Assembly: GCA_016839445.1 (NCBI GenBank)
Contig: JAEOUG010000152.1
Location: 1-10,205, forward strand
Source of the DNA: Candidatus Thorarchaeota archaeon
Lineage (GTDB): Archaea > Asgardarchaeota > Thorarchaeia > Thorarchaeales > Thorarchaeaceae
Direction: 5' to 3'
DNA: 10,205 nucleotides
This document shows positions 1 through 10,127 of this stretch, piece after piece. Within the stretch, counting starts at the first letter, position 1, and every line of letters begins with the position of its first letter. The notes under the pieces were generated by a model. It ran no database searches. It worked only from the letters and a program-made list of their open reading frames with translations, and was not told where the DNA came from. The translations under genes were made by a program, and so were the position numbers.

Positions 1-87
1 AAGGATGCAGTGGAAGATCTCAAGGCAGATATCATAGCGGGTATAATCCCGATTGATAACTACAACCACACCTACTGGCTAGATTAG
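1..87 (+). CDS. 3' end (partial) of a probable BMP-family (basic membrane protein) ABC substrate-binding protein
   Basis: Frame 1 is open from base 1 and reads KDAVEDLKADIIAGIIPIDNYNHTYWLD*, with TAG at 85-87. 'AVEDLKADIIAGII' resembles the typical BMP/PnrA C-terminus, and the position directly upstream of a CUT2 ATPase and two permeases is the usual operon order. Confidence 0.75.
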   Translation, partial: KDAVEDLKADIIAGIIPIDNYNHTYWLD

Positions 88-128: not shown

Positions 129-184
129 GTCTTGTCGGCCCATGAGAGATAGGTATGGGAGCGCACCTCGAATTGGCCCGTCTA

Positions 185-204
185 GCCCTATTGTTATATA
201 GGGC
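185..204 (+). promoter_or_regulatory. Putative TATA box (TTATATA, 194-200) inside a 7-bp inverted repeat; internal promoter/operator for the ATPase-permease genes
   Basis: The sequence is GCCCTAT-TGTTAT-ATAGGGC with perfect arms at 185-191 and 198-204. The AT-rich box lies about 63 nt upstream of ATG 263. Confidence 0.5.
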
Positions 205-262
205 GATGCCGTTTGCTTGGCAGGCTACACATCCACTTGGCCGGAACATGAAGGAGTGCACC

Positions 263-2062
263 ATGGTGTACGCTGTTGAACTGGAGAACATCAGCAAGAC
301 CTTCCCGGGTGGTGTTGAAGCAAACAAGGACATCACCTTGAGAATAAAGGAGGGCGAGGTCCACGGTCTTCTTGGGGAAAATGGGGCGGGCAAGAGCACC
401 CTCATGAATATCCTCTATGGACTGCTCTCTTGTGACACTGGACGTATCAAGATCCGAGGCGAAGAGGTCCACCTCACAACCCCTGAAGACGCCATTGTGA
501 AAGGCGTCGGCATGGTTCATCAGCACTTCAAACTGGTGCCGCCTCTGACTGTTACCGAGAATGTGATGATGGGGTCGGAGCCCCGGGACCCTGAGCCAGA
601 CATGAGAATGCGGTATGGCCTCATTGCCATTTCCCTCATCGCCATTCTTCTGGCCTACTTGAATATGGATATCATTGGAGCCACCGTTGCCACAGTGGTC
701 TACTTTGTTATCCTGGTCCTCGCCTTTGAGGCACTTGGCATCCTCAAATGGATCCATCTTCGGTTCGTGGCCGCGCAAGAAAAGCGCACCGGACGGTCGG
801 CTCAGTTCGTTGGCATATTCACGAGCATCTTCGGCTACCTCCGTTATGCTATCCTGAATATGACTTCAATAGGATTCTCAGAGGCAAAAGAGAAGATCAA
901 GAGAATCGCTGAAGAGAACGGTCTGACCATCGACCCTGAAGCAAAGGTCGCAGACATCTCGGTTGGTCTCCAGCAACGCGTTGAAATTGTGAAGGCCCTG
1001 TACAGAGAAGCTGAGATACTCATTCTGGATGAGCCCACGTCGGTTCTAACGCCTCAGGAGGTCGATGAGCTTTTCCTTACACTTAACAAGTTCAGAGACA
1101 GCGGTAAGACGATAATCCTAATCACGCACAAGCTTCGCGAACCGATGGCACTCTGTGACAGAATCAGCGTTCTCAGAGATGGCGAGCTGGTAGGAACCGT
1201 GGACAAGAAAGACACATCCCCGGAGCAGCTCGCCCAGATGATGGTCGGTAGGGAGGTCGTATTCCGCGTCGAGAAGCCGCCTGCCAGTCCTGGCGACGCA
1301 GTACTTCATGTTGAAGACTTACACGTGAATGACATAAGAGGCGTACCTGCGGTCAAGGGGATCTCGCTTGACGTACGACGGGGAGAGATCTTCGGAATAG
1401 CCGGCGTGGAAGGCAACGGTCAAACAGAACTAGTAGAAGCTCTGGCGGGTCTGCGGAGGCCCTCAAGAGGCCGCATAACAGTGGACGGCAATGATATCAC
1501 GCGAGCCAGCCCGCGCAGGGTTCGCGAGGCGGGAGTTGCGCACATTCCTGAGGACAGGCATCGTCGTGGACTTGTCCTTCCATTTACCATCAAGGAGAAT
1601 CTCGTAATCGGAAGGCACTACCAGAAGCCATTCGCAGAAGGTGCCATGCTACAGAACCGGCCAATGGCCAAGGTATCGCGCGATTTGGTCGACGAGTACT
1701 CTATCAAGATAGGTGGAATCGATTCACTGGCCAACACGCTATCAGGTGGTAACCAGCAAAAGCTTGTGGTTGCCAGAGAGTTGTCAACGTCACCCAAACT
1801 AATACTGGCGGCACAACCAACTCGAGGACTGGACGTTGGAGCTACCGAATTCGTACACAACACTCTGATCAGAATGCAGCAGGCGGGTGCGGGCATCCTA
1901 CTTGTTTCAGCTGAGCTTGATGAGATTCGCAACCTATCGGACAGAATCGCCGTAATCTATGAAGGTCGAATTGTGGCCGTCAAGGAGAGAGACGAGGCTA
2001 CGCAGGAGCAGCTGGGGCTGCTGATGGCCGGTCACGGTGAGGACGAGGAGGCGATAGTGTGA
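263..2062 (+). CDS. ABC transporter ATP-binding protein, CUT2/nucleoside type (NupA/YufO-like, two fused NBDs), with an internal hydrophobic insertion
   Basis: NBD1 has Walker A GENGAGKST, Q-loop VHQHF, degenerate signature ISVGLQQR, Walker B ILILDEPT and H-loop ITHKL. NBD2 has degenerate Walker A GVEGNGQT and intact signature LSGGNQQK. The start is moved from 155 to ATG 263 (MVYAVELENISKTF, 599 aa) because AAGGAG lies at 251-256 and the upstream extension would cover the putative promoter. Confidence 0.95.
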   Translation: MVYAVELENISKTFPGGVEANKDITLRIKEGEVHGLLGENGAGKSTLMNILYGLLSCDTGRIKIRGEEVHLTTPEDAIVKGVGMVHQHFKLVPPLTVTENVMMGSEPRDPEPDMRMRYGLIAISLIAILLAYLNMDIIGATVATVVYFVILVLAFEALGILKWIHLRFVAAQEKRTGRSAQFVGIFTSIFGYLRYAILNMTSIGFSEAKEKIKRIAEENGLTIDPEAKVADISVGLQQRVEIVKALYREAEILILDEPTSVLTPQEVDELFLTLNKFRDSGKTIILITHKLREPMALCDRISVLRDGELVGTVDKKDTSPEQLAQMMVGREVVFRVEKPPASPGDAVLHVEDLHVNDIRGVPAVKGISLDVRRGEIFGIAGVEGNGQTELVEALAGLRRPSRGRITVDGNDITRASPRRVREAGVAHIPEDRHRRGLVLPFTIKENLVIGRHYQKPFAEGAMLQNRPMAKVSRDLVDEYSIKIGGIDSLANTLSGGNQQKLVVARELSTSPKLILAAQPTRGLDVGATEFVHNTLIRMQQAGAGILLVSAELDEIRNLSDRIAVIYEGRIVAVKERDEATQEQLGLLMAGHGEDEEAIV

Positions 2063-3534
2063 CCATAGAGACCATAGAGGTAGAGCAGGAACCAGAGAAG
2101 ATGGACTTCTTCTCTCGACTCAGGAAGTCGATTGCGGACAGATTCAACGATCCATCGTCGCAACGGCAGGTCATGTGGGCGTTGGGCTCAATCCTGATGG
2201 CTATGATTATCGCCACAGTAATGATGGTCATCGCCGGCTACGACGCACTTCTGGCATGGATAGCTCTGATACGTGGGATGATTGTACGTTGGGATAGAAC
2301 ACTACTAGAGGCGACTCCGCTGGTATTCACAGGTCTCTCGGTCGGTCTGGCGTTCAAGTGCGGTCTCTTCAACATCGGCCCTGAGGGGCAGCTCTATGTA
2401 GGCTCAATGGTAGCGGCACTCACTGGATATCTTGTTGCATTGCCGATAGGGATTCACCCGATTGCATGCATTGCAGTCGCTGCCGGAGCTGGCTTCTTGT
2501 GGGGTCTTCTCCCGGGGATTCTCAAGGCATACAGAGGCGCACATGAAGTTGTAACAACAATGATGATGAGCTATATTGCCATCAATCTCACTTCGTGGCT
2601 TGTCCGGGGCCCATTCAAGGAGCCGAATCAGATGGTGGATCAGACACCAGACCTCCTAACAAGCGCATGGCTACCGACCATCTATCGAGAAGCCACTGTT
2701 GGCATATTGGTGGCTCTGTTCATAGTCTTCCTAGTTGATGTCTTCATCAACAAGACAGTAATCGGTTTCGAGATGCGCGCCGTGGGTCTCAATATGGATG
2801 CCGCCGAGTATTCAGGAATCAATGCCAAGAGGAATATGGCTCTCGCATTAGGGATTGCTGGTGCATTGGCAGGTATCGGAGGAGCAGTTGAGATGCAGGG
2901 CAACCTCCACCGCTTCGAGGCAAACTGGTCCAAGGGCTATGGGTGGGACGGTATCACTGTCGCAGTGCTGGGGAACAACTCACCCTGGGGAATCCTGTTG
3001 GGAGCTCTTCTATTCGGTGCACTTCGTACAGGGGGGCGTGAGATGCAGCGGTACGGTTTCGCGCCTGAAGAGATCATCGCCGTTGTTCAAGGGCTGGTTG
3101 TGTTGTTCATTGCGGCTCCAAGAATCATTGAGTATGTATCTAAGACATTCACAGAAGAGGGTCAGCGCGTGAAGGTGGACCGCAGAGAGGCCGCTCCGTT
3201 TCTCCTTGGTGCCAGCATAGCGCTGGCTGGCACTGTGTTTGGCATCGCAGGTGTGACACTGATTGCCAACATGATCTTCCTTTGGGTAATCCTTCTGGGA
3301 GGAATCGTGGGCGTCTACTCCTTCATGAAGTTCTTAGTTAGAGACCAGGCCGCCACAAACGCGCTACTCATCGAAGGCCTCATCTGGTTAGGTGTTGCTG
3401 CGGCGATGTTCTCTGGCTCAATGCTGGTCGTTGGTGTCTTTGGCGTTCTCGGTTTCATGAGCATCGTCGGCGCTCTTGTGCTTAGAGGGATGATTCGTGA
3501 GAGGGCAGGGACCCAAGGGGGAGGTGATCTCTAG
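2059..3534 (+). CDS. ABC transporter permease (BPD_transp_2 family, NupB/YufP-like) with an extra C-terminal ~4-TM extension
   Basis: Contains family motifs TPLVFTGLSVGLAFKCGLFNIGPEGQ, AHEVVTTMMMSYIA, GFEMRAVGLN and GYGWDGITVAVLG. The GTG start overlaps the ATPase TGA (GTGA), with a GAGGAGG SD upstream. Confidence 0.93.
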   Translation: MTIETIEVEQEPEKMDFFSRLRKSIADRFNDPSSQRQVMWALGSILMAMIIATVMMVIAGYDALLAWIALIRGMIVRWDRTLLEATPLVFTGLSVGLAFKCGLFNIGPEGQLYVGSMVAALTGYLVALPIGIHPIACIAVAAGAGFLWGLLPGILKAYRGAHEVVTTMMMSYIAINLTSWLVRGPFKEPNQMVDQTPDLLTSAWLPTIYREATVGILVALFIVFLVDVFINKTVIGFEMRAVGLNMDAAEYSGINAKRNMALALGIAGALAGIGGAVEMQGNLHRFEANWSKGYGWDGITVAVLGNNSPWGILLGALLFGALRTGGREMQRYGFAPEEIIAVVQGLVVLFIAAPRIIEYVSKTFTEEGQRVKVDRREAAPFLLGASIALAGTVFGIAGVTLIANMIFLWVILLGGIVGVYSFMKFLVRDQAATNALLIEGLIWLGVAAAMFSGSMLVVGVFGVLGFMSIVGALVLRGMIRERAGTQGGGDL

Positions 3535-4481
3535 TGGCAACTCCTATTGAGATACTCTTCCTGCTGTCCCTCCAGATGTCAGTACCCCTAGTACTAACAG
3601 CACTGGGTGGTATGTTCTCCGAGCGTTCTGGAGTCGTCAACATTGGACTAGAAGGAATGATGCTGATTGGAGCGTTCATGGCGGTCTGGGTGACGGATAT
3701 GGCACGGAGTCCTTGGATAGGCCTCATAGGGGCTGCCATAGGCGGTGGTGCACTGGCCTTTGTCCATGCAGTCATCTGTGTGAAATACAAGGGCAATCAC
3801 ATTGTCAGCGGCGCCGGCCTAATCCTGATTGGAGCAGGGCTCACAGAGTTTGGATCTAAGGCAATCTGGGGACACAAGGGATACTCTGATCCACTTCCGT
3901 CGTTCCTGGTCCTGCCGAAGATCGAGATTCCTGGAGCAGAGAATATCCCGGTTGTAGGCTACGCACTATCCTCAATGTCACCAATGATCTACCTGATGTT
4001 CCTCATGGTCATCATTTGCTGGTACGTCATGTACAGGACTCCCTTTGGTCTGAGACTCAGAGCAGCGGGAGAAGACCCTAGCACACTGGACGCGGCCGGG
4101 GTCAGTGTCGAGCAGACCCGCATGATTGGCGTCGTCATCAGTGGTGTGATGGCGGGATTGGGAGGAGCTTACCTGTCTATAGGATACAACAGTGCCTTCG
4201 GGTCCGGCATGACCGCTGGACGCGGGTTCATCTCACTGGCAGCTCTCATCTTCGGGAATTGGACTCCTATTGGATGTGCTCTTGCGGGTATGTTCTTTGG
4301 ATTCCTCTATGGACTGGGGATTCTCATCGAGGGATTGGAACAGTTTGCGTTTCTCGACCCATACACCGAGTTTGTAGCGATGATTCCGTATGTGTTCGTT
4401 ATCGTTGCACTGGCTGGCATTCGCAGGTCTGTTCCGCCCAAGTCAATCGGAGTGCCCTATGAGAAGGAAAAGCGAGCCTAG
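3534..4481 (+). CDS. ABC transporter permease (BPD_transp_2 family, NupC/YufQ-like)
   Basis: Contains motifs PLVLTALGGMFSERSGVVNIGLEGMML, RTPFGLRLRAAGEDP, GMTAGRGFISLAALIFGNW and a C-terminal PKSIGVPY. The GTG start overlaps the previous TAG by 1 nt, with SD GGAGGTGA at 3520-3527. Confidence 0.95.
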   Translation: MATPIEILFLLSLQMSVPLVLTALGGMFSERSGVVNIGLEGMMLIGAFMAVWVTDMARSPWIGLIGAAIGGGALAFVHAVICVKYKGNHIVSGAGLILIGAGLTEFGSKAIWGHKGYSDPLPSFLVLPKIEIPGAENIPVVGYALSSMSPMIYLMFLMVIICWYVMYRTPFGLRLRAAGEDPSTLDAAGVSVEQTRMIGVVISGVMAGLGGAYLSIGYNSAFGSGMTAGRGFISLAALIFGNWTPIGCALAGMFFGFLYGLGILIEGLEQFAFLDPYTEFVAMIPYVFVIVALAGIRRSVPPKSIGVPYEKEKRA

Positions 4482-4498: not shown

Positions 4499-6049
4499 CT
4501 AGGAAACGAGCCAGACGTTCAGACTCGTCAGGCCAACCCAGCCACTTAAATAGCTAGCAGAGACTGGAACACCTGTTTCCAGAGAAACGACCAATTCCCA
4601 GGAGACATAGCCATCGGGCAAAATCGTCATTGAATACTGGAGATGCATATACCCCTCTGAGATCCACGACCGGTACCCACTTGAACCAGAGTCAGGAAAG
4701 AACCCGTCGATGCTGGCCCACATCCCAACGGGAAGATAGGCCCTTGATATGAGCCGAGCCACGCTATTCTCCATGTACTCATATCCACTGGTCCCCCCAG
4801 AGAACTCGCACGATAGCTTGTAGCTCTCGACAAGAGAGTTGATGAACGACGAGGGCGTGTAGATGCCATGGAGTGGAGGAGGGTTGTGAAGGGTCGCGTT
4901 TACCATTCCATATGATACGGGACTGGGATCACCGGAGAATGATTGGGAGTACTGATAGGCAAACTGATGAAACGTCATCGCCTCGTCGCTCCAGTGCGCT
5001 CTAACAGCAGATGTATCAACTGCAGCAATCGACACCGCTGCAACGAGAATCACGAGGACTACCACTGCGACTCCTGCTCTTCGTGTCTGAGCTAGAGAGT
5101 ATTGCTCTGTGAAGGTTATACCACCATATCTTCTTGGGGCAACATCTAAGCCGAGACTTGCGCCTTCGCTCTGCCACAGCCAACCGCTAAGCATGAACCA
5201 ACCGCAGATCAACAGCAGCATACCGAAGAAAAAGAAGCCCAGCACGAAAGACGCAATCGGCGCTATGATATAATAGCAATATCCTACACAGAAACTGGAC
5301 GCGAGCAACATCTGTGTTGTCGAGGTGAAGATTACAATCGCTGCAAGAGTCATCAGGGTGAAGACAGTCATGACCCAGATGTACTGCGAACTCTCCTCTC
5401 GAAGCCTCGACCACATTGCACGGGCCGCAGTGAAGGGATTGGCTCCATAGCTCACTCTCCACTGGAACGCCGAGAAGTTGAGTGTCCAGAACGTACACCA
5501 GGCCAGTGTCACAGCCCAAAGTAGTTGCGATGGTATGCTTCCGGGGTCTCCGAACGCTAGGAAGACGAAAACGAGAAGCGCAACAACGGGGAGGTTGACA
5601 ACCAGACTCACAACGCTTCCATAAGCAAGCATGGAGATGACGCTAGTGGGTGTGCCAGGAGAAGCGGCTTCTCGATGGCCTATCCGCTGTGCCAGCTCCA
5701 CCTGCAGCAGGCCCAATCCTAGCATACCTGAAGCGCAGAACGGTATGAGGACAATAGCCCGGGAGATGACTTGGGGGAGGCTACCAGAGGTGAAGAAGGA
5801 GTAGTCAGAGAAACCTGCCAAGACGAGGTACAAGTGGGAGGAGTAGTCAGGAGGAAGAAGACTGACGATGCCCGCAATTCCCAGGACCGTCGTCGCGAAG
5901 ACGACTAACGTGACTATGAGTGATTTGAGTGAAGCCCAGACACATCCCCAGGGGTTGTCGATGATCACATCGTACGCACTATCAGCTGCGCTCAAGAGGC
6001 TCATGACCAGATTCCTCCCAGACACGCTTGGCATACGTAAGGGATGCAC
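4499..6049 (-). CDS. Hypothetical multi-pass membrane protein: ~6-7 TM N-terminal domain, then a further TM helix and a C-terminal soluble domain
   Basis: A 516-codon ORF that fills the gap between convergent and divergent genes. It has many hydrophobic segments in aa 40-292, then RRAGVAVVVLVILVAAVSIAAV and a ~170-aa Ser/Gly/aromatic-rich domain. The start is uncertain (GTG 6049, ATG 6034 or ATG 6004). Confidence 0.75.
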   Translation of the reverse strand: MHPLRMPSVSGRNLVMSLLSAADSAYDVIIDNPWGCVWASLKSLIVTLVVFATTVLGIAGIVSLLPPDYSSHLYLVLAGFSDYSFFTSGSLPQVISRAIVLIPFCASGMLGLGLLQVELAQRIGHREAASPGTPTSVISMLAYGSVVSLVVNLPVVALLVFVFLAFGDPGSIPSQLLWAVTLAWCTFWTLNFSAFQWRVSYGANPFTAARAMWSRLREESSQYIWVMTVFTLMTLAAIVIFTSTTQMLLASSFCVGYCYYIIAPIASFVLGFFFFGMLLLICGWFMLSGWLWQSEGASLGLDVAPRRYGGITFTEQYSLAQTRRAGVAVVVLVILVAAVSIAAVDTSAVRAHWSDEAMTFHQFAYQYSQSFSGDPSPVSYGMVNATLHNPPPLHGIYTPSSFINSLVESYKLSCEFSGGTSGYEYMENSVARLISRAYLPVGMWASIDGFFPDSGSSGYRSWISEGYMHLQYSMTILPDGYVSWELVVSLETGVPVSASYLSGWVGLTSLNVWLVS

Positions 6050-6270: not shown

Positions 6271-6846
6271 GTGAGTCCCGACAGCAACAACACTATCATG
6301 TTCAAAATGGCTCTCATCGGAGATCCAGCTGTCGGGAAGACGAGTCTCAGGCGCAAGTTCCTAGGACAGGGCTTCATTCATAGCCACATAGCCACAATTG
6401 GTGTTGACTTCGCTCAGAAGTATGTAGGCGTTGACGGCAGGACCATCCGCCTTGTGATCTGGGATTTGGCAGGCCAGCAATCCTACGAGTCCGTCAGGAA
6501 GCACTACTACCAGGGATGCAGTTCTTTGATTCTAGTGTACTCGGTCATGGAGCGGGAAACCTTCGACAATGCTTCTCGCTGGCTAGTAGAGGCCTACAAG
6601 TACATGGGAGAGCTGCCACCAACAGCGATTCTTGCCAACAAGACCGACCTGCGAGACCAGAATCCTGAGGGTGCTGTAACCACTGAGGAAGGACAGGCGT
6701 TCGCTGAGCTGTTCAAGGAGAAGTTGCAGGTTCCCGCCTTCTTCAGAGAAACCTGCGCCCTTACTGGCGACAACGTAGAAGAGACCTTCCTCGAACTCTC
6801 GAGGATGATGATTGCCGAACACGAAGCAAGACTCATTCCGAAGTAG
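6271..6846 (+). CDS. Rab-like small GTPase (Ras superfamily; eukaryotic signature protein)
   Basis: G1 GDPAVGKTS, G2/RabF1 TIGVDF, RabF2-like RLVIW, G3 WDLAGQ, RabF4-like YYQGC, RabF5-like LVYSVM, G4 NKTD and G5 ETCAL are present. AGGAG at 6257-6261 precedes GTG 6271; ATG 6298 is an alternative start. Confidence 0.95.
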   Translation: MSPDSNNTIMFKMALIGDPAVGKTSLRRKFLGQGFIHSHIATIGVDFAQKYVGVDGRTIRLVIWDLAGQQSYESVRKHYYQGCSSLILVYSVMERETFDNASRWLVEAYKYMGELPPTAILANKTDLRDQNPEGAVTTEEGQAFAELFKEKLQVPAFFRETCALTGDNVEETFLELSRMMIAEHEARLIPK

Positions 6847-7294: not shown

Positions 7295-8197
7295 CTAGTC
7301 AAGTTCCACTCTCTTATGATGTCGTGGATCCTTGGAAGTCTCTTTGGTGATCTCCCACGGCACGAAGTGGCTGAACAGCTCCGTCCTGTACTTCTGGACA
7401 TAGCAGGCCAGGAAGAGGAGAAAGGAGATGAAGGCTCCGACGATCAACGCCACCGCCATATGTGTAGTTGAGTCGACAGCGCCGGAGGTCAGAAGGGGAG
7501 TCAACAGCCAGTAGATACCCAAGATTATTCCAATGTACATCGGACAGGAAACTCTGCACCCGATGGGGACTCCGATTCTGTGACTCAAGTACTGCTCCAG
7601 TGTGAAGTCCTTAACGTAGTAGCCTAGTTTGGCACCAGCTACGGCCGCCTGTGAGAAGGCTTTCTCGGCAAGGGCTCGCTTCCCCATCCTGTAATGGACC
7701 AAACCTAGTTCATTCCATGCCTCATGATAGCATGGGTCGAACTTGAGAGCGCTCTCGAAAGCCTCCTGAGCAGAGTCGAATCGCCTCGCTACAACATAGG
7801 ACTTGCCCAACATGAACCATGCCTTTGGGTTCTCCGGTTCGTCGGTAGACAGCTCTTTCGCGGCTTCAATGGCTCTCTCAACTTGCAGCTGCTCGAGAAG
7901 CTGTTCAATCTCCTTGCGGGAATCCTTGCTCCGCTTCGACTCTCGCGTCTTCTTCGGATTCCGAGCCTCTTCAATATCATGACTGCTGGCTTCGGACAAG
8001 AGGCAGCTTCTGGTCACCGTGTTAGAGCAATCAAGCTCAACATAGATCTCGGAGCCGACTATGGGAATCTCTATGTCAGTCGACGGATCGTAGAGTATCT
8101 CCTTCTTCTTGCCATTCTCCAGTCTCAGGTCGACGCTTGTGAAAGCCCTGTCAGAGTAGACCTTCACTACCTTGCCAACAGCCCTTGGAATCACCAC
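7295..8197 (-). CDS. Tetratricopeptide-repeat protein with an N-terminal beta-rich domain and two C-terminal TM helices
   Basis: TPR consensus units AWFMLGKSY...A.EAFESALKFDP and AWNELGLVHY...A.KAFSQA have AW at aa 126 and 160 (34-aa period), with a degenerate unit before them. Hydrophobic segments lie at aa ~220-238 and ~247-267. Confidence 0.85.
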   Translation of the reverse strand: MVIPRAVGKVVKVYSDRAFTSVDLRLENGKKKEILYDPSTDIEIPIVGSEIYVELDCSNTVTRSCLLSEASSHDIEEARNPKKTRESKRSKDSRKEIEQLLEQLQVERAIEAAKELSTDEPENPKAWFMLGKSYVVARRFDSAQEAFESALKFDPCYHEAWNELGLVHYRMGKRALAEKAFSQAAVAGAKLGYYVKDFTLEQYLSHRIGVPIGCRVSCPMYIGIILGIYWLLTPLLTSGAVDSTTHMAVALIVGAFISFLLFLACYVQKYRTELFSHFVPWEITKETSKDPRHHKRVELD

Positions 8198-8276: not shown

Positions 8277-10070
8277 CTAGAGTGTCGCCTCGAAGCCCTT
8301 GACGAACTCCTTGAACTGGTCGATGCCCTTCTGCCAGAACTCCTCTTTGGTGATGTCAAAGCCGATCTCTGCAGCGAGGTCTCGTGGACTCTTGCTCGAA
8401 CCAGCAGCGAGGAGTGCCTTAAGCTTGGGAACAAACTCCTTGCCCAGCTCCTTGTAGAGTCGATACATCGCATAGACAAACAGCTGCGCGTAGACGTACG
8501 GGTAGTTGTAGTAGCGGAAGCCCGGCATGTAGAAGTGTAGCTTGAACGTCCACCACCATTTCATCTCCGGCAGCCACTCGACTGCGTCACCGTACATCTT
8601 GTCTCTGGCTTGCAGCCAAAGCTTCGAAACGTACTCGCCGTCAAGGTGCTTGCCGTCTCTCAGGGCATCGTAGAGCAATGTTTCGAACCAGACCCGCGTG
8701 CTGACCTGGAACGCGGCCTCGCCGAACTCGTCTATTACAGTGGCAAGGACAGCTCGCTTCTCTTCTTTTGTCTTAGCTTCCTCGAGCAACTTATCTGCAA
8801 TCAGGAGTTCCCCGAAAATCGACCCTGTCTCGGCAACGCAATAGCTGATCTGGTAGTTCGTAGGATTCTGGGCGCGAGTACCCAAGTGCGCATGCATCGC
8901 GTGTCCCAGCTCATGCGCCTGAGTGAAGACATCTGACATGATTCCATTGAAGCTCTGCAGGATGTAAGCAGTCTCTCCTTTGTGCCATGTTGCGCAGTAT
9001 GCGCCAGAACGTTTGCCCTTCCTGACAACGGCATCAATGTGCCGCTTCTCGTACATGTCCTTCATCCACTGCCCAACCTCTTCGTCGAACTCGTCGTAAG
9101 CTTGAGTCACAACGGCCTTGGAGTCATCCCACGTGTATTTCCTCTCTGGACTGTCAGGCAGGGGAGCAATAATGTCCCAGTTACCTAGTTTCTTCAAGCC
9201 GAGCACCTTGGCCTTCAGCTTCAGGTAGTCTTGGTAGACGCCAACGTTCTTCTCGATGGTGCTCATCAGGGCATCAACGGTCTCATCGTCGACATCGTTG
9301 ACAACAAGACTTTGAGTCATGGGAGTTTCCCATCCTCGGAGCTTCACCATTTCTAGATGGTCTGAGCAGACAGACCTAAGCGATGTCGCCCAGAGAATCT
9401 CGTCCTGGGCCAGGCCCTGATAGACGGATTCATGGGCCCGCCGTCTCAGATCGCGGTCGGGACTCTGATAGTACTGAATTATCTCTCCATATGGAAGGCT
9501 CTTGACCTCCCCATCGACTTCTAGTTCGAAGGTCCTAGTAGACAGCCAGTCACCCTGAAGGTTTGACCACGCTCTGATTCCGTTCTTGTCCTTGATGATT
9601 GCCATCTCTTCTTGTGCTTCCGATAGCATGTAGGGAATCTGGCGCACCATCTTCTCAAGGTAGTGCTTGTATTCGGCGAGAACAGGATCCTCGACGAGTT
9701 CTGGCTTCTCTTTCAGGAGCTGACCCAGTTCAAGTTCTGCGAATGCAGTCAGCTGATTCACCTGAGTGCTAGAATTCATGAACTGGTTGAACAGCTTGGA
9801 CGCATCTGGGTGCGTCATGTCCGCATCGTAGAACAGGTGTGCGTACGTGAAGGGGCCTTCGTACTCTAGCGTAATCCTATCTACTTCCCTAAGAGTCTCA
9901 AGCACCTGTTTGGCGTCATACTGCGTGATCTTCCCGCGATGCTTCGCGCGGAACTCCTCCGCAACCTTCACCACCGCCTGCATCCTTTCCATTATGTAGG
10001 CGGTGTCATCGAACTCTACAAGTTGTGACAGATCCCAAGTCATCTTCTTCGTGTCTGACATGACAACCAT
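8277..10070 (-). CDS. pepF: Oligoendopeptidase F (peptidase family M3B, zinc metallopeptidase)
   Basis: N-terminal TWDLSQL, RKGKRSGAYC, zinc motif HELGH (8901-8915), downstream AETGSIFGE ligand segment, HFY...YYNYPY and a C-terminal LAAGSSKSPRDL...GFDIT...FWQKG. About 597 aa from ATG 10070 (ATG 10061 is an alternative), which is typical M3B length; the GTG at 10124 is probably too far upstream. Confidence 0.95.
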   Translation of the reverse strand: MVVMSDTKKMTWDLSQLVEFDDTAYIMERMQAVVKVAEEFRAKHRGKITQYDAKQVLETLREVDRITLEYEGPFTYAHLFYDADMTHPDASKLFNQFMNSSTQVNQLTAFAELELGQLLKEKPELVEDPVLAEYKHYLEKMVRQIPYMLSEAQEEMAIIKDKNGIRAWSNLQGDWLSTRTFELEVDGEVKSLPYGEIIQYYQSPDRDLRRRAHESVYQGLAQDEILWATSLRSVCSDHLEMVKLRGWETPMTQSLVVNDVDDETVDALMSTIEKNVGVYQDYLKLKAKVLGLKKLGNWDIIAPLPDSPERKYTWDDSKAVVTQAYDEFDEEVGQWMKDMYEKRHIDAVVRKGKRSGAYCATWHKGETAYILQSFNGIMSDVFTQAHELGHAMHAHLGTRAQNPTNYQISYCVAETGSIFGELLIADKLLEEAKTKEEKRAVLATVIDEFGEAAFQVSTRVWFETLLYDALRDGKHLDGEYVSKLWLQARDKMYGDAVEWLPEMKWWWTFKLHFYMPGFRYYNYPYVYAQLFVYAMYRLYKELGKEFVPKLKALLAAGSSKSPRDLAAEIGFDITKEEFWQKGIDQFKEFVKGFEATL

Positions 10071-10094
10071 CTGTCCGTCCCACAACTCAAGTCC

Positions 10095-10112
10095 CTTAAG
10101 AGTGATGCTTTC
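10095..10112 (-). promoter_or_regulatory. Possible TATA-like promoter for a leaderless pepF transcript
   Basis: The minus strand reads GAAAGCATCACTCTTAAG. CTTAAG (10100-10095) ends about 25 nt upstream of ATG 10070, and there is no clear SD. Confidence 0.35.
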
Positions 10113-10127
10113 TGGATAATCCACAAG

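Follow-up and report, generated by a model that had tools for sequence, protein, structure and literature searches.

How is a hydrophobic, apparently membrane-spanning stretch of 97 residues accommodated inside the motor domain of an ATP-binding cassette (ABC) importer, and what would it do there? The question is raised by P0001, an ABC ATPase of 599 amino acids (aa) encoded at 263..2062 (+) of contig JAEOUG010000152.1 from a Candidatus Thorarchaeota archaeon (assembly GCA_016839445.1). The window analysed was this whole 10.2-kb contig (10,205 nt), part of a 2.9-Mb archaeal bin that is ~90% complete with an estimated contamination of 6.45%. In textbook ABC importers the motor, the nucleotide-binding domain (NBD), is soluble, and the transmembrane domain (TMD) that forms the pathway is found in separate chains or joined end to end. 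P0001 carries two NBDs in tandem (Pfam ABC_tran PF00005, two stretches, E 1.2e-50), and a first reading of the letters without database searches (hereafter the sequence-only reading) had proposed that a membrane hairpin is grafted into NBD1. Computation established that the insert exists and where it lies, and it gave the pattern of hydrophobicity and charge, the conservation, selection and distribution of the insert, and its helical prediction. From this computational basis, the insert is likely to be a membrane anchor with both ends in the cytoplasm (N-in/C-in), holding NBD1 beside the permease as an accessory element.

Extent and predicted membrane helices of the insert

The likely start codon of P0001 is the ATG at 263, with AAGGAG ahead of it, and the reading frame is open throughout 155..2062 (+), so the frame is intact as the sequence-only reading had it. 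All elements of the protein described here lie on the + strand. The NBD1 Walker A motif, GENGAGKST, occupies residues 38-46 (374..400). The last canonical element before the insert is the post-Q-loop helix TVTENVMMGSEP (residues 96-107, 548..583), seen as H97-102 in a single-chain AlphaFold2 (AF2) model that was built on a 60-sequence alignment and had a mean predicted local distance difference test score (pLDDT) of 82.2. From there, 97 residues (108-204, 584..874) lead to the canonical helical-subdomain helix FSEAKEKIKRIAEENGLTIDP (residues 205-225, 875..937; AF2 H205-218), and the signature-like motif ISVGLQQR is found at residues 232-239 (956..979). These limits came from comparison with profiles, a PDB structure and homologues, and they agree closely with the ~95 residues at 584..868 claimed beforehand. 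Matches to the Pfam and NCBIfam profiles are interrupted between about residue 103 and about residue 206, and at the insert site the NBD of ABCA4 in the PDB has 8 residues, versus 101 in P0001.

With a profile made from 60 insert-bearing homologues, 1.84 billion representatives were searched, and the best 150 at 50% identity were taken. The expectation that related ATPases normally have about 500 aa and no insert held for most of them: 133 were no longer than 561 aa, with profile position ~203 directly following protein residue ~112-115. By motif spacing, 62 of the 150 were canonical without a hydrophobic segment, 9 had segments at the site and 3 were intermediate ('other'), while the motif regular expression left 76 unclassified.

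Misassembly across the insert was checked with Logan contigs from runs of three studies. Contig X1 matched 300-723 with 1 difference, X5 matched 386-881 with 2, and X3 matched 765-1200 with none. X1 runs across the 5' junction and X3 across the 3' junction, each by more than 31 nt; X5 covers the entire insert and extends only 7 nt past the 3' junction. A jump from 409 to 1019 in one X5 contig (20-nt side) was disregarded because it sits at a conserved Walker A where sequences of many organisms pile up. The GC content was 0.50-0.54 over the insert region versus 0.51-0.58 in the flanking gene, and the ATPase gene is single-copy in its own genome. The termini are not of the intein type, as the sequence-only reading had also stated; the insert starts with R-D-P and ends with S-I-G before an F, and Pfam gave no intein or Hint domain. 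A tblastn search of its own genome with the insert revealed no paralogous source, the best E-value being 3.1. Among proteins of 30-328 aa, a word-based search returned nothing except a 261-aa fragment of an ATPase and revealed no free-standing homologue of the insert, and an ESM Atlas feature search with the insert gave no usable match.

Transmembrane (TM) segments were called from Kyte-Doolittle averages over 19-residue windows (KD19) together with an unweighted Hessa sum. The two strongly hydrophobic stretches and the third, amphipathic one quoted in the sequence-only reading were all located: YGLIAISLIAILLAYL at residues 118-133, IIGATVATVVYFVILVLAFEALGIL at 137-161 and FVGIFTSIFGYLRYAIL at 182-198. 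Helix 1 (residues 118-133, 614..661), which has a basic R-M-R ahead of it, reached a KD19 of 2.33. Helix 2 (residues 137-161, 671..745), followed by a basic K-W-I-H-L-R...K-R-x-G-R, reached 2.63 at residues 137-155, with a favourable Hessa sum of -2.3; the maximum KD19 elsewhere in the protein was 0.97. The AF2 model placed insert helices at residues 114-134, 137-174 and 178-200, ahead of the canonical H205-218, with pLDDT values of 87, 92 and 86 for residues 121-150. A fold search of this model returned only ordinary tandem-NBD proteins, for example 8wdb_D and EttA.

The charges around the two helices were averaged over 64 homologues. Mean K+R was 2.6 for the 12 residues that precede helix 1 and 2.0 for the 12 that follow helix 2; in the loop, mean K+R was 0.08 and mean D+E 0.81. 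By this pattern the turn N-M-D of P0001 (residues 134-136, 662..670) is predicted to face outside. Median lengths in these homologues were 19 residues for each helix and 3 for the loop. The insert thus has the two uncharged hydrophobic helices of bilayer-spanning length and the short turn of a hairpin, helix 1 of P0001 being at the short end, along with positive-inside charges and an even number of helices. An N-in/C-in charge pattern is what is required here, because the insert sits inside a cytoplasmic domain. Among Asgard inserts, 2 helices were found with spacers of 111-131 aa and 4 with spacers of 156 and 221 aa, and where the threshold scan gave odd counts (1 or 3), the third helix or a helix below the threshold accounted for them. 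The length classes therefore differ by whole hairpins, again as required of an insert in a cytoplasmic domain. The third helix (residues 178-200, 794..862) is hydrophobic in P0001 (maximal hydrophobic moment 0.41, K+R 1) and cationic-amphipathic in the 64 homologues (median maximal hydrophobic moment 0.59, median K+R 3); it is probably an in-plane interfacial helix.

The hairpin that the sequence-only reading placed between Q-loop and signature motif is thus supported by hydrophobicity, charges, helix parity and the AF2 model, and also by selection (see below), and from these we infer membrane insertion, topology, permease contact and functional role. In the proposed arrangement, the insert would leave NBD1 immediately behind the Q-loop helix, where the helical subdomain starts and on the side facing the permease. 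In MalK, residues in the loop equivalent to the insert site are reported to cross-link to the EAA loops of the permease. Helix 1 (~118-133) would cross the membrane, and after the 3-residue outer turn helix 2 (~137-161) would return; the third helix (~178-200) would rest against the membrane from the cytoplasmic side before the chain rejoins the canonical fold. The ATPase would become an integral membrane protein, permanently beside the permease. The hairpin would act as an anchor or assembly element outside the transport path, and it might restrain the movement of the helical subdomain.

Distribution, selection and history

Of the 120 best clusters at 90% identity (query included), 64 had at least 2 hydrophobic segments at the insert site, 9 had a soluble extension (spacer 73-77 residues) and 47 a short spacer (54-64 residues); the named homologues among the best clusters were all labelled Thor-, Loki- or Promethearchaeota. 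When these clusters were combined with 55 related genomes, each contributing one locus, 156 non-redundant rows resulted, of which 72 had a TM insert, 13 were 'mid' and 71 'short'. The TM classes share a common plan: EP, a basic stretch, TM1, a short loop, TM2, a second basic stretch, a linker, G, an amphipathic helix and P-x-G-F. Few insert columns reach 50% identity, and the hydrophobic and charge pattern is kept. An orthologue of the ATPase (E ≤ 1e-60) was present in 70 of the 86 genomes of the window's GTDB family, its own included. The TM insert was found at 16 of the 55 related genome loci, spread over 7 genera, and a contig-end fragment in one genome (G348, of the window's own genus) matches straight through the insert. 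In six pairs of same-length sequences, the ratio of nonsynonymous to synonymous substitution rates (dN/dS) was 0.21-0.35 for the insert and 0.05-0.14 for the core. Judged by these ratios, the insert is under purifying selection, relaxed as would be expected for lipid-exposed helices. Insert-bearing orthologues and selective constraint, both of which bear on the sequence-only reading, were thus found.

The window's own genus (g1 of family f1) is mixed. The insert is present in three genomes (G340, G356 and G362) and in the window, and it is missing from 13 genomes; most genomes have one gene copy each. Since both forms occur in one genus and mostly as single copies, gene replacement, or old paralogy with differential loss, would account for the distribution. 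Beyond this family, orthologues at E ≤ 1e-120 were detected in three more: f11 (10 of 22 genomes), f14 (12 of 19) and f32 (one genome, G397, counted as 1 of 4 under '3 more' families). Six loci from these families (L094-L099) had no hydrophobic segment, and their motif-to-signature spacing was 42 (canonical), 54-58 or 83-88. The loops with a spacing of 83-88 are soluble, rich in Gly, Arg and Leu, and amphipathic-looking. Spacers in the window's family, measured slightly differently, were 54-64, 73-77, 111-131 (2 TM), 156 (4 TM) and 221. This graded series of loop lengths suggests stepwise growth of a membrane-facing loop.

A tree computed from core columns only, without the insert, placed the TM-bearing rows in a few clades, with weakly supported branches between them. 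A single clade for all 22 TM rows of a 50-row set was not rejected by the approximately unbiased (AU) test (p-AU 0.884), and the constrained single-clade tree was 35.5 log-likelihood units above the quick free tree; the group had been chosen after the data were seen, which weakens the test. The simplest reading of these sequences would be a single origin within one Asgard family, then hairpin duplication and, among lineages, replacement or loss.

A second TM site, located between the NBD2 Walker A and the HIPEDR motif, has 2 or 4 helices in some Asgard orthologues (L087, L089-L091, P0050, P0055, P0059, P0065, P0102 and P0122). Among the 123 Asgard rows with all landmarks, helices occurred at the NBD1 site only in 56, at both sites in 9, at the NBD2 site only in 2 and at neither in 56. 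P0065 measures 862 aa, with about 4 + 4 helices.

In Chloroflexota, ATPases of this family carry 2 to ~19 hydrophobic segments, at the same NBD site and at two others. P0124 (690 aa, NCBI label Chloroflexia), P0126 and P0138 have 2-3 hydrophobic segments at the NBD1 site of the Asgard insert. P0131 (1079 aa), P0140 (1077 aa), P0129 and P0132 have 6-12 there, and in NBD2 either further segments or an RDD-family domain (PF06271; P0129, P0132 and P0140). Among 76 Chloroflexota-dominated loci there are 12 with full-length ATPases of 1063-1438 aa, which have 9-19 hydrophobic segments in NBD1 and NBD2. Two adjacent permease genes accompany 7 of these, and 5 (L100-L104) have none within 5 kb. At a thirteenth locus with a full-length insert-bearing ATPase (L118, 632 aa), a 2-helix hairpin follows the NBD2 Q-loop helix and two permease genes are present, so that two adjacent permeases were found at 8/13 such loci. 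L113 and L116 have truncated open reading frames (ORFs) only, with 5-6 hydrophobic segments, L110 was left unclassified, and the ATPases of the other 60 loci are canonical, 507-542 aa long and free of hydrophobic segments. L100-L112 and L118 are records of Chloroflexota metagenome-assembled genomes.

The insertion logic of these relatives is that of the Asgard proteins, as their helices come directly behind the Q-loop helix in NBD1 or NBD2; the inserts, however, are much larger and unrelated in sequence to the Asgard insert. The nesting of membrane helices in the NBD is thus recurrent among these ATPases: three hot spots and two domains of life are involved, with an independent origin in Chloroflexota. 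A bolder proposal, which we hold only tentatively and consider rather doubtful, is that ATPases of this family form an unrecognised class of 'membrane-integrated NBDs', in which TM modules of 2 to >10 helices would be working parts of the translocator and the Thor-type hairpin the minimal form. Their hot spots would lie after the NBD1 Q-loop helix, after the NBD2 Walker A and after the NBD2 Q-loop helix. The nested helices would add to or reshape the membrane domain, and at the Chloroflexota loci without a nearby permease they might replace the permease.

The transporter and its genomic context

The window begins with the end of an upstream gene, which is followed by the tandem-NBD ATPase and by two BPD_transp_2 permeases. 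The upstream fragment (1..87, +) comprises the last 28 codons of the gene, translated as KDAVEDLKADIIAGIIPIDNYNHTYWLD, and the stop. A KDAVEDLKADIIAGIIPIDNYNHTYWLD-like C-terminal pattern also ends the upstream genes at 8 related loci, and 2 upstream genes of related loci match Pfam Bmp PF02608 (E 6e-51 and 2.5e-51). By this comparison the fragment is probably the C-terminus of the operon's Bmp/PnrA-type substrate-binding protein. The binding proteins at related loci have an N-terminal hydrophobic anchor.

The best NCBIfam model for the ATPase was NF047930, 'putative B6 ABC transporter ATP-binding protein', at 451.3 bits versus a cut-off of 670. The match came in two stretches, split at the insert, and stayed below the level for an equivalog. 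The equivalogs of sugar CUT2 ATPases (RbsA, MglA, AraG, XylG, AlsA) scored 325-389 bits, with cut-offs of 689-828 not reached. On these profile and gene-context grounds, P0001 is classed as the ATPase subunit of a CUT2-like, Bmp/PnrA-dependent (COG3845 type), nucleoside-type importer. No substrate was assigned, because NF047930 remained below its cut-off and the sugar CUT2 equivalogs scored lower still. The earlier assignment to the CUT2/nucleoside importer ATPases is therefore upheld by Pfam, by NCBIfam and by the Bmp match in related loci.

COG3845-type importer ATPases include NupO/YufO of Bacillus and RfuB of Treponema. P0001 shares with the Bmp/PnrA-dependent ATPases the two ABC_tran domains in one chain, a canonical NBD1, a degenerate NBD2, high identity outside the insert and the operon order Bmp-ATPase-two permeases, the Bmp match being seen in related loci only. 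It departs from them in not being a soluble chain of about 500 aa without a membrane segment: they have ~500-560 aa and no hydrophobic segment, whereas P0001 has 599 aa, 97 extra residues and two TM-like helices in NBD1 (KD19 2.33 and 2.63). With the sugar CUT2 ATPases it shares the tandem-NBD layout and the permease fold family, but those work with another family of binding protein and have no insert.

The claim that all catalytic motifs are intact was right for NBD1, in which Walker A, Walker B and H-loop are canonical, and wrong for NBD2. There, as is typical of the family, Walker A (GVEGNGQTE, 1403-1429), Walker B (LILAAQPT, 1799-1834) and H-loop (LVSAEL, 1901-1918) are degenerate, and the signature LSGGNQQK is canonical. 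From general knowledge of ABC proteins, the sole catalytic-looking ATP site looks to be the one formed by the NBD1 Walker A and the NBD2 signature.

Permease 1 (2059..3534, +; 491 aa) has a BPD_transp_2 core (Pfam PF02653, E 4.9e-40, residues 80-351) and beyond it a C-terminal extension of ~128 aa (residues 365-491, window 3151-3531). Its AF2 model had a mean pLDDT of 90.6 and placed helices in the extension at residues 375-400, 405-427, 431-449 and 455-486, with pLDDT of 83-96 in the blocks from 371 to 480. Permease 2 (3534..4481, +; 315 aa) is a further BPD_transp_2 protein (PF02653, E 9.5e-42). A sequence search of solved structures gave 0 matches for permease 2 and, for permease 1, three chance-level matches to major histocompatibility complex proteins (E 0.22-0.27). 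The fold search of the permease 1 model gave weak matches to the TMDs of type II importers, BtuC, HmuU and PsaC (E 0.008-0.04, target-normalised TM-score 0.45-0.55).

The rest of the window encodes a 516-aa ORF with many hydrophobic stretches and no Pfam match (4499-6049, -), a Ras-family small GTPase of a kind common in Asgard archaea (6271-6846, +; PF00071, E 5.5e-41) and two proteins assigned by Pfam, namely a tetratricopeptide-repeat protein with a hydrophobic C-terminal part (7295-8197, -) and an M3-family, oligoendopeptidase F-like peptidase (8277-10124, -). The Ras-family GTPase, together with the Thor-, Loki- or Promethearchaeota labels of the named homologues, assigns the source organism to the Asgard archaea. 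An Rfam scan of the window found no RNA family.

Alternative explanations and significance

Several observations weigh against an anchoring hairpin. Helix 1 and the turn are both short, at 16-17 hydrophobic residues and 3 residues, and the unweighted Hessa sum is not favourable for helix 1 (best +0.94); given these lengths, the hairpin may be re-entrant or monotopic rather than fully spanning. The AF2 model, being of a single chain, cannot reveal a membrane or a partner. The insert evolves fast in sequence, with a dN/dS 2- to 5-fold that of the core, and when it was used alone as a phmmer query, none of the 399 other genomes of the phylum gave a match at E ≤ 0.001. The hairpin is dispensable for this type of transporter, as 39 of the 55 related loci lack it, including 13 genomes of its own genus. 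No permease feature co-varies with it either, permease 1 measuring 485-509 aa at 51/51 loci. It is because most orthologues are without the hairpin, and because no permease feature varies with it, that the anchor is regarded as accessory.

It is possible, if rather unlikely, that the hairpin is instead a specific intramembrane interaction or regulatory module that tunes the coupling of ATP hydrolysis to transport; its partner might be the C-terminal four-helix extension of permease 1 or the TM anchor at the N-terminus of the Bmp protein. The insert leaves the NBD at its post-Q-loop/helical-subdomain face, which meets the permease according to passages of PMC6906923. The helices of the permease 1 extension are confidently modelled, related binding proteins are anchored, and the hairpin belongs to NBD1, whose Walker A, Walker B and H-loop are canonical. 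However, the extension was present at 51/51 related Asgard loci, with W443 invariant, whether or not the ATPase had a hairpin, and a coupling of the hairpin to this extension was rejected for that reason. The anchored binding protein is equally present without the hairpin, so no co-varying partner was found, and the poor conservation of the hairpin sequence suits lipid-facing helices better than a specific interface. A prediction of the complex of permease 1, permease 2 and ATPase residues 96-222 scored 0.00 versus a mark of 0.32 and gave no verdict either way.

A more improbable explanation is that the insert is tolerated, essentially neutral baggage which selection only keeps hydrophobic and harmless. 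Most orthologues work without a hairpin, loop length varies across Asgard families, and the constraint is relaxed relative to the core, all of which would fit. Yet the insert is retained down to ~57% overall identity, and no decayed or partly deleted hairpin was seen, even though an in-frame deletion could easily remove a useless insert. The dN/dS is well below 1, the length classes change by whole hairpins, and analogous inserts are independent in Chloroflexota.

We consider it very improbable that the helices are outside the membrane, either as a soluble hydrophobic bundle (e.g. an element for ATPase oligomerisation) or bound to the membrane surface only. The shortness of helix 1 and its Hessa sum would agree with this, and AF2 would give helices either way. 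However, uncharged hydrophobic stretches that run for 16-25 residues and reach a KD19 of 2.63 are atypical of soluble bundles, and a positive-inside pattern along with the even-number rule is expected only of membrane-spanning pairs. An assembly artefact, chimera or pseudogene has next to no probability: the contig is short and its bin carries some estimated contamination, and nothing else was found in favour, whereas the junctions are bridged in three studies, the frame is intact, the GC content is near that of the flanking gene and the same architecture recurs in dozens of independent assemblies.

A membrane anchor nested in NBD1 has partial parallels in other ABC proteins. UvrA, Rad50/SMC and the NBD1 insertion of CFTR illustrate the common principle that an NBD tolerates a large insert between Walker A and signature; their inserts are soluble DNA-binding, coiled-coil or disordered elements, whereas that of P0001 is a predicted membrane-crossing hairpin. 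In exporter half-transporters and in NBD-TMD proteins of the MacB type the ATPase chain is itself membrane-embedded, as is proposed for P0001. Their TMD, however, is at a terminus of the NBD and forms the transport pathway, while in P0001 two helices are predicted within the NBD and separate permease genes are kept.

The sequence-only reading had allowed that such an insert might already be both common and described. It is common, in one Asgard family and with analogues in Chloroflexota, and no publication describing it was found. A full-text literature search, with subscription journals mostly outside its reach, returned no description of TM helices in this family of ATPases or within the NBD of any ABC protein. 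Nucleoside ABC systems are listed in a survey of Asgard transporters, in passages that do not mention this feature (PMC7997004). The importer is thus ordinary, and the membrane-nested architecture of its motor subunit is apparently undescribed so far.

P0001 and its lineage would nest membrane helices inside the motor domain, at the very surface by which it communicates with the permease. Provided that the hairpin is membrane-inserted, three questions follow: how a split NBD folds around a hairpin that is inserted co-translationally, whether tethering alters the dynamics of the helical subdomain, which couples ATP to transport, and why some Asgard and Chloroflexota lineages need nested helices. 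The hairpin could also be a natural handle for structural work on the class that combines BPD_transp_2 permeases with a tandem-NBD ATPase, for which no solved complex was found by sequence or fold search. For annotation, insert-bearing proteins now labelled 'ATP-binding proteins' should be predicted to be integral membrane proteins.

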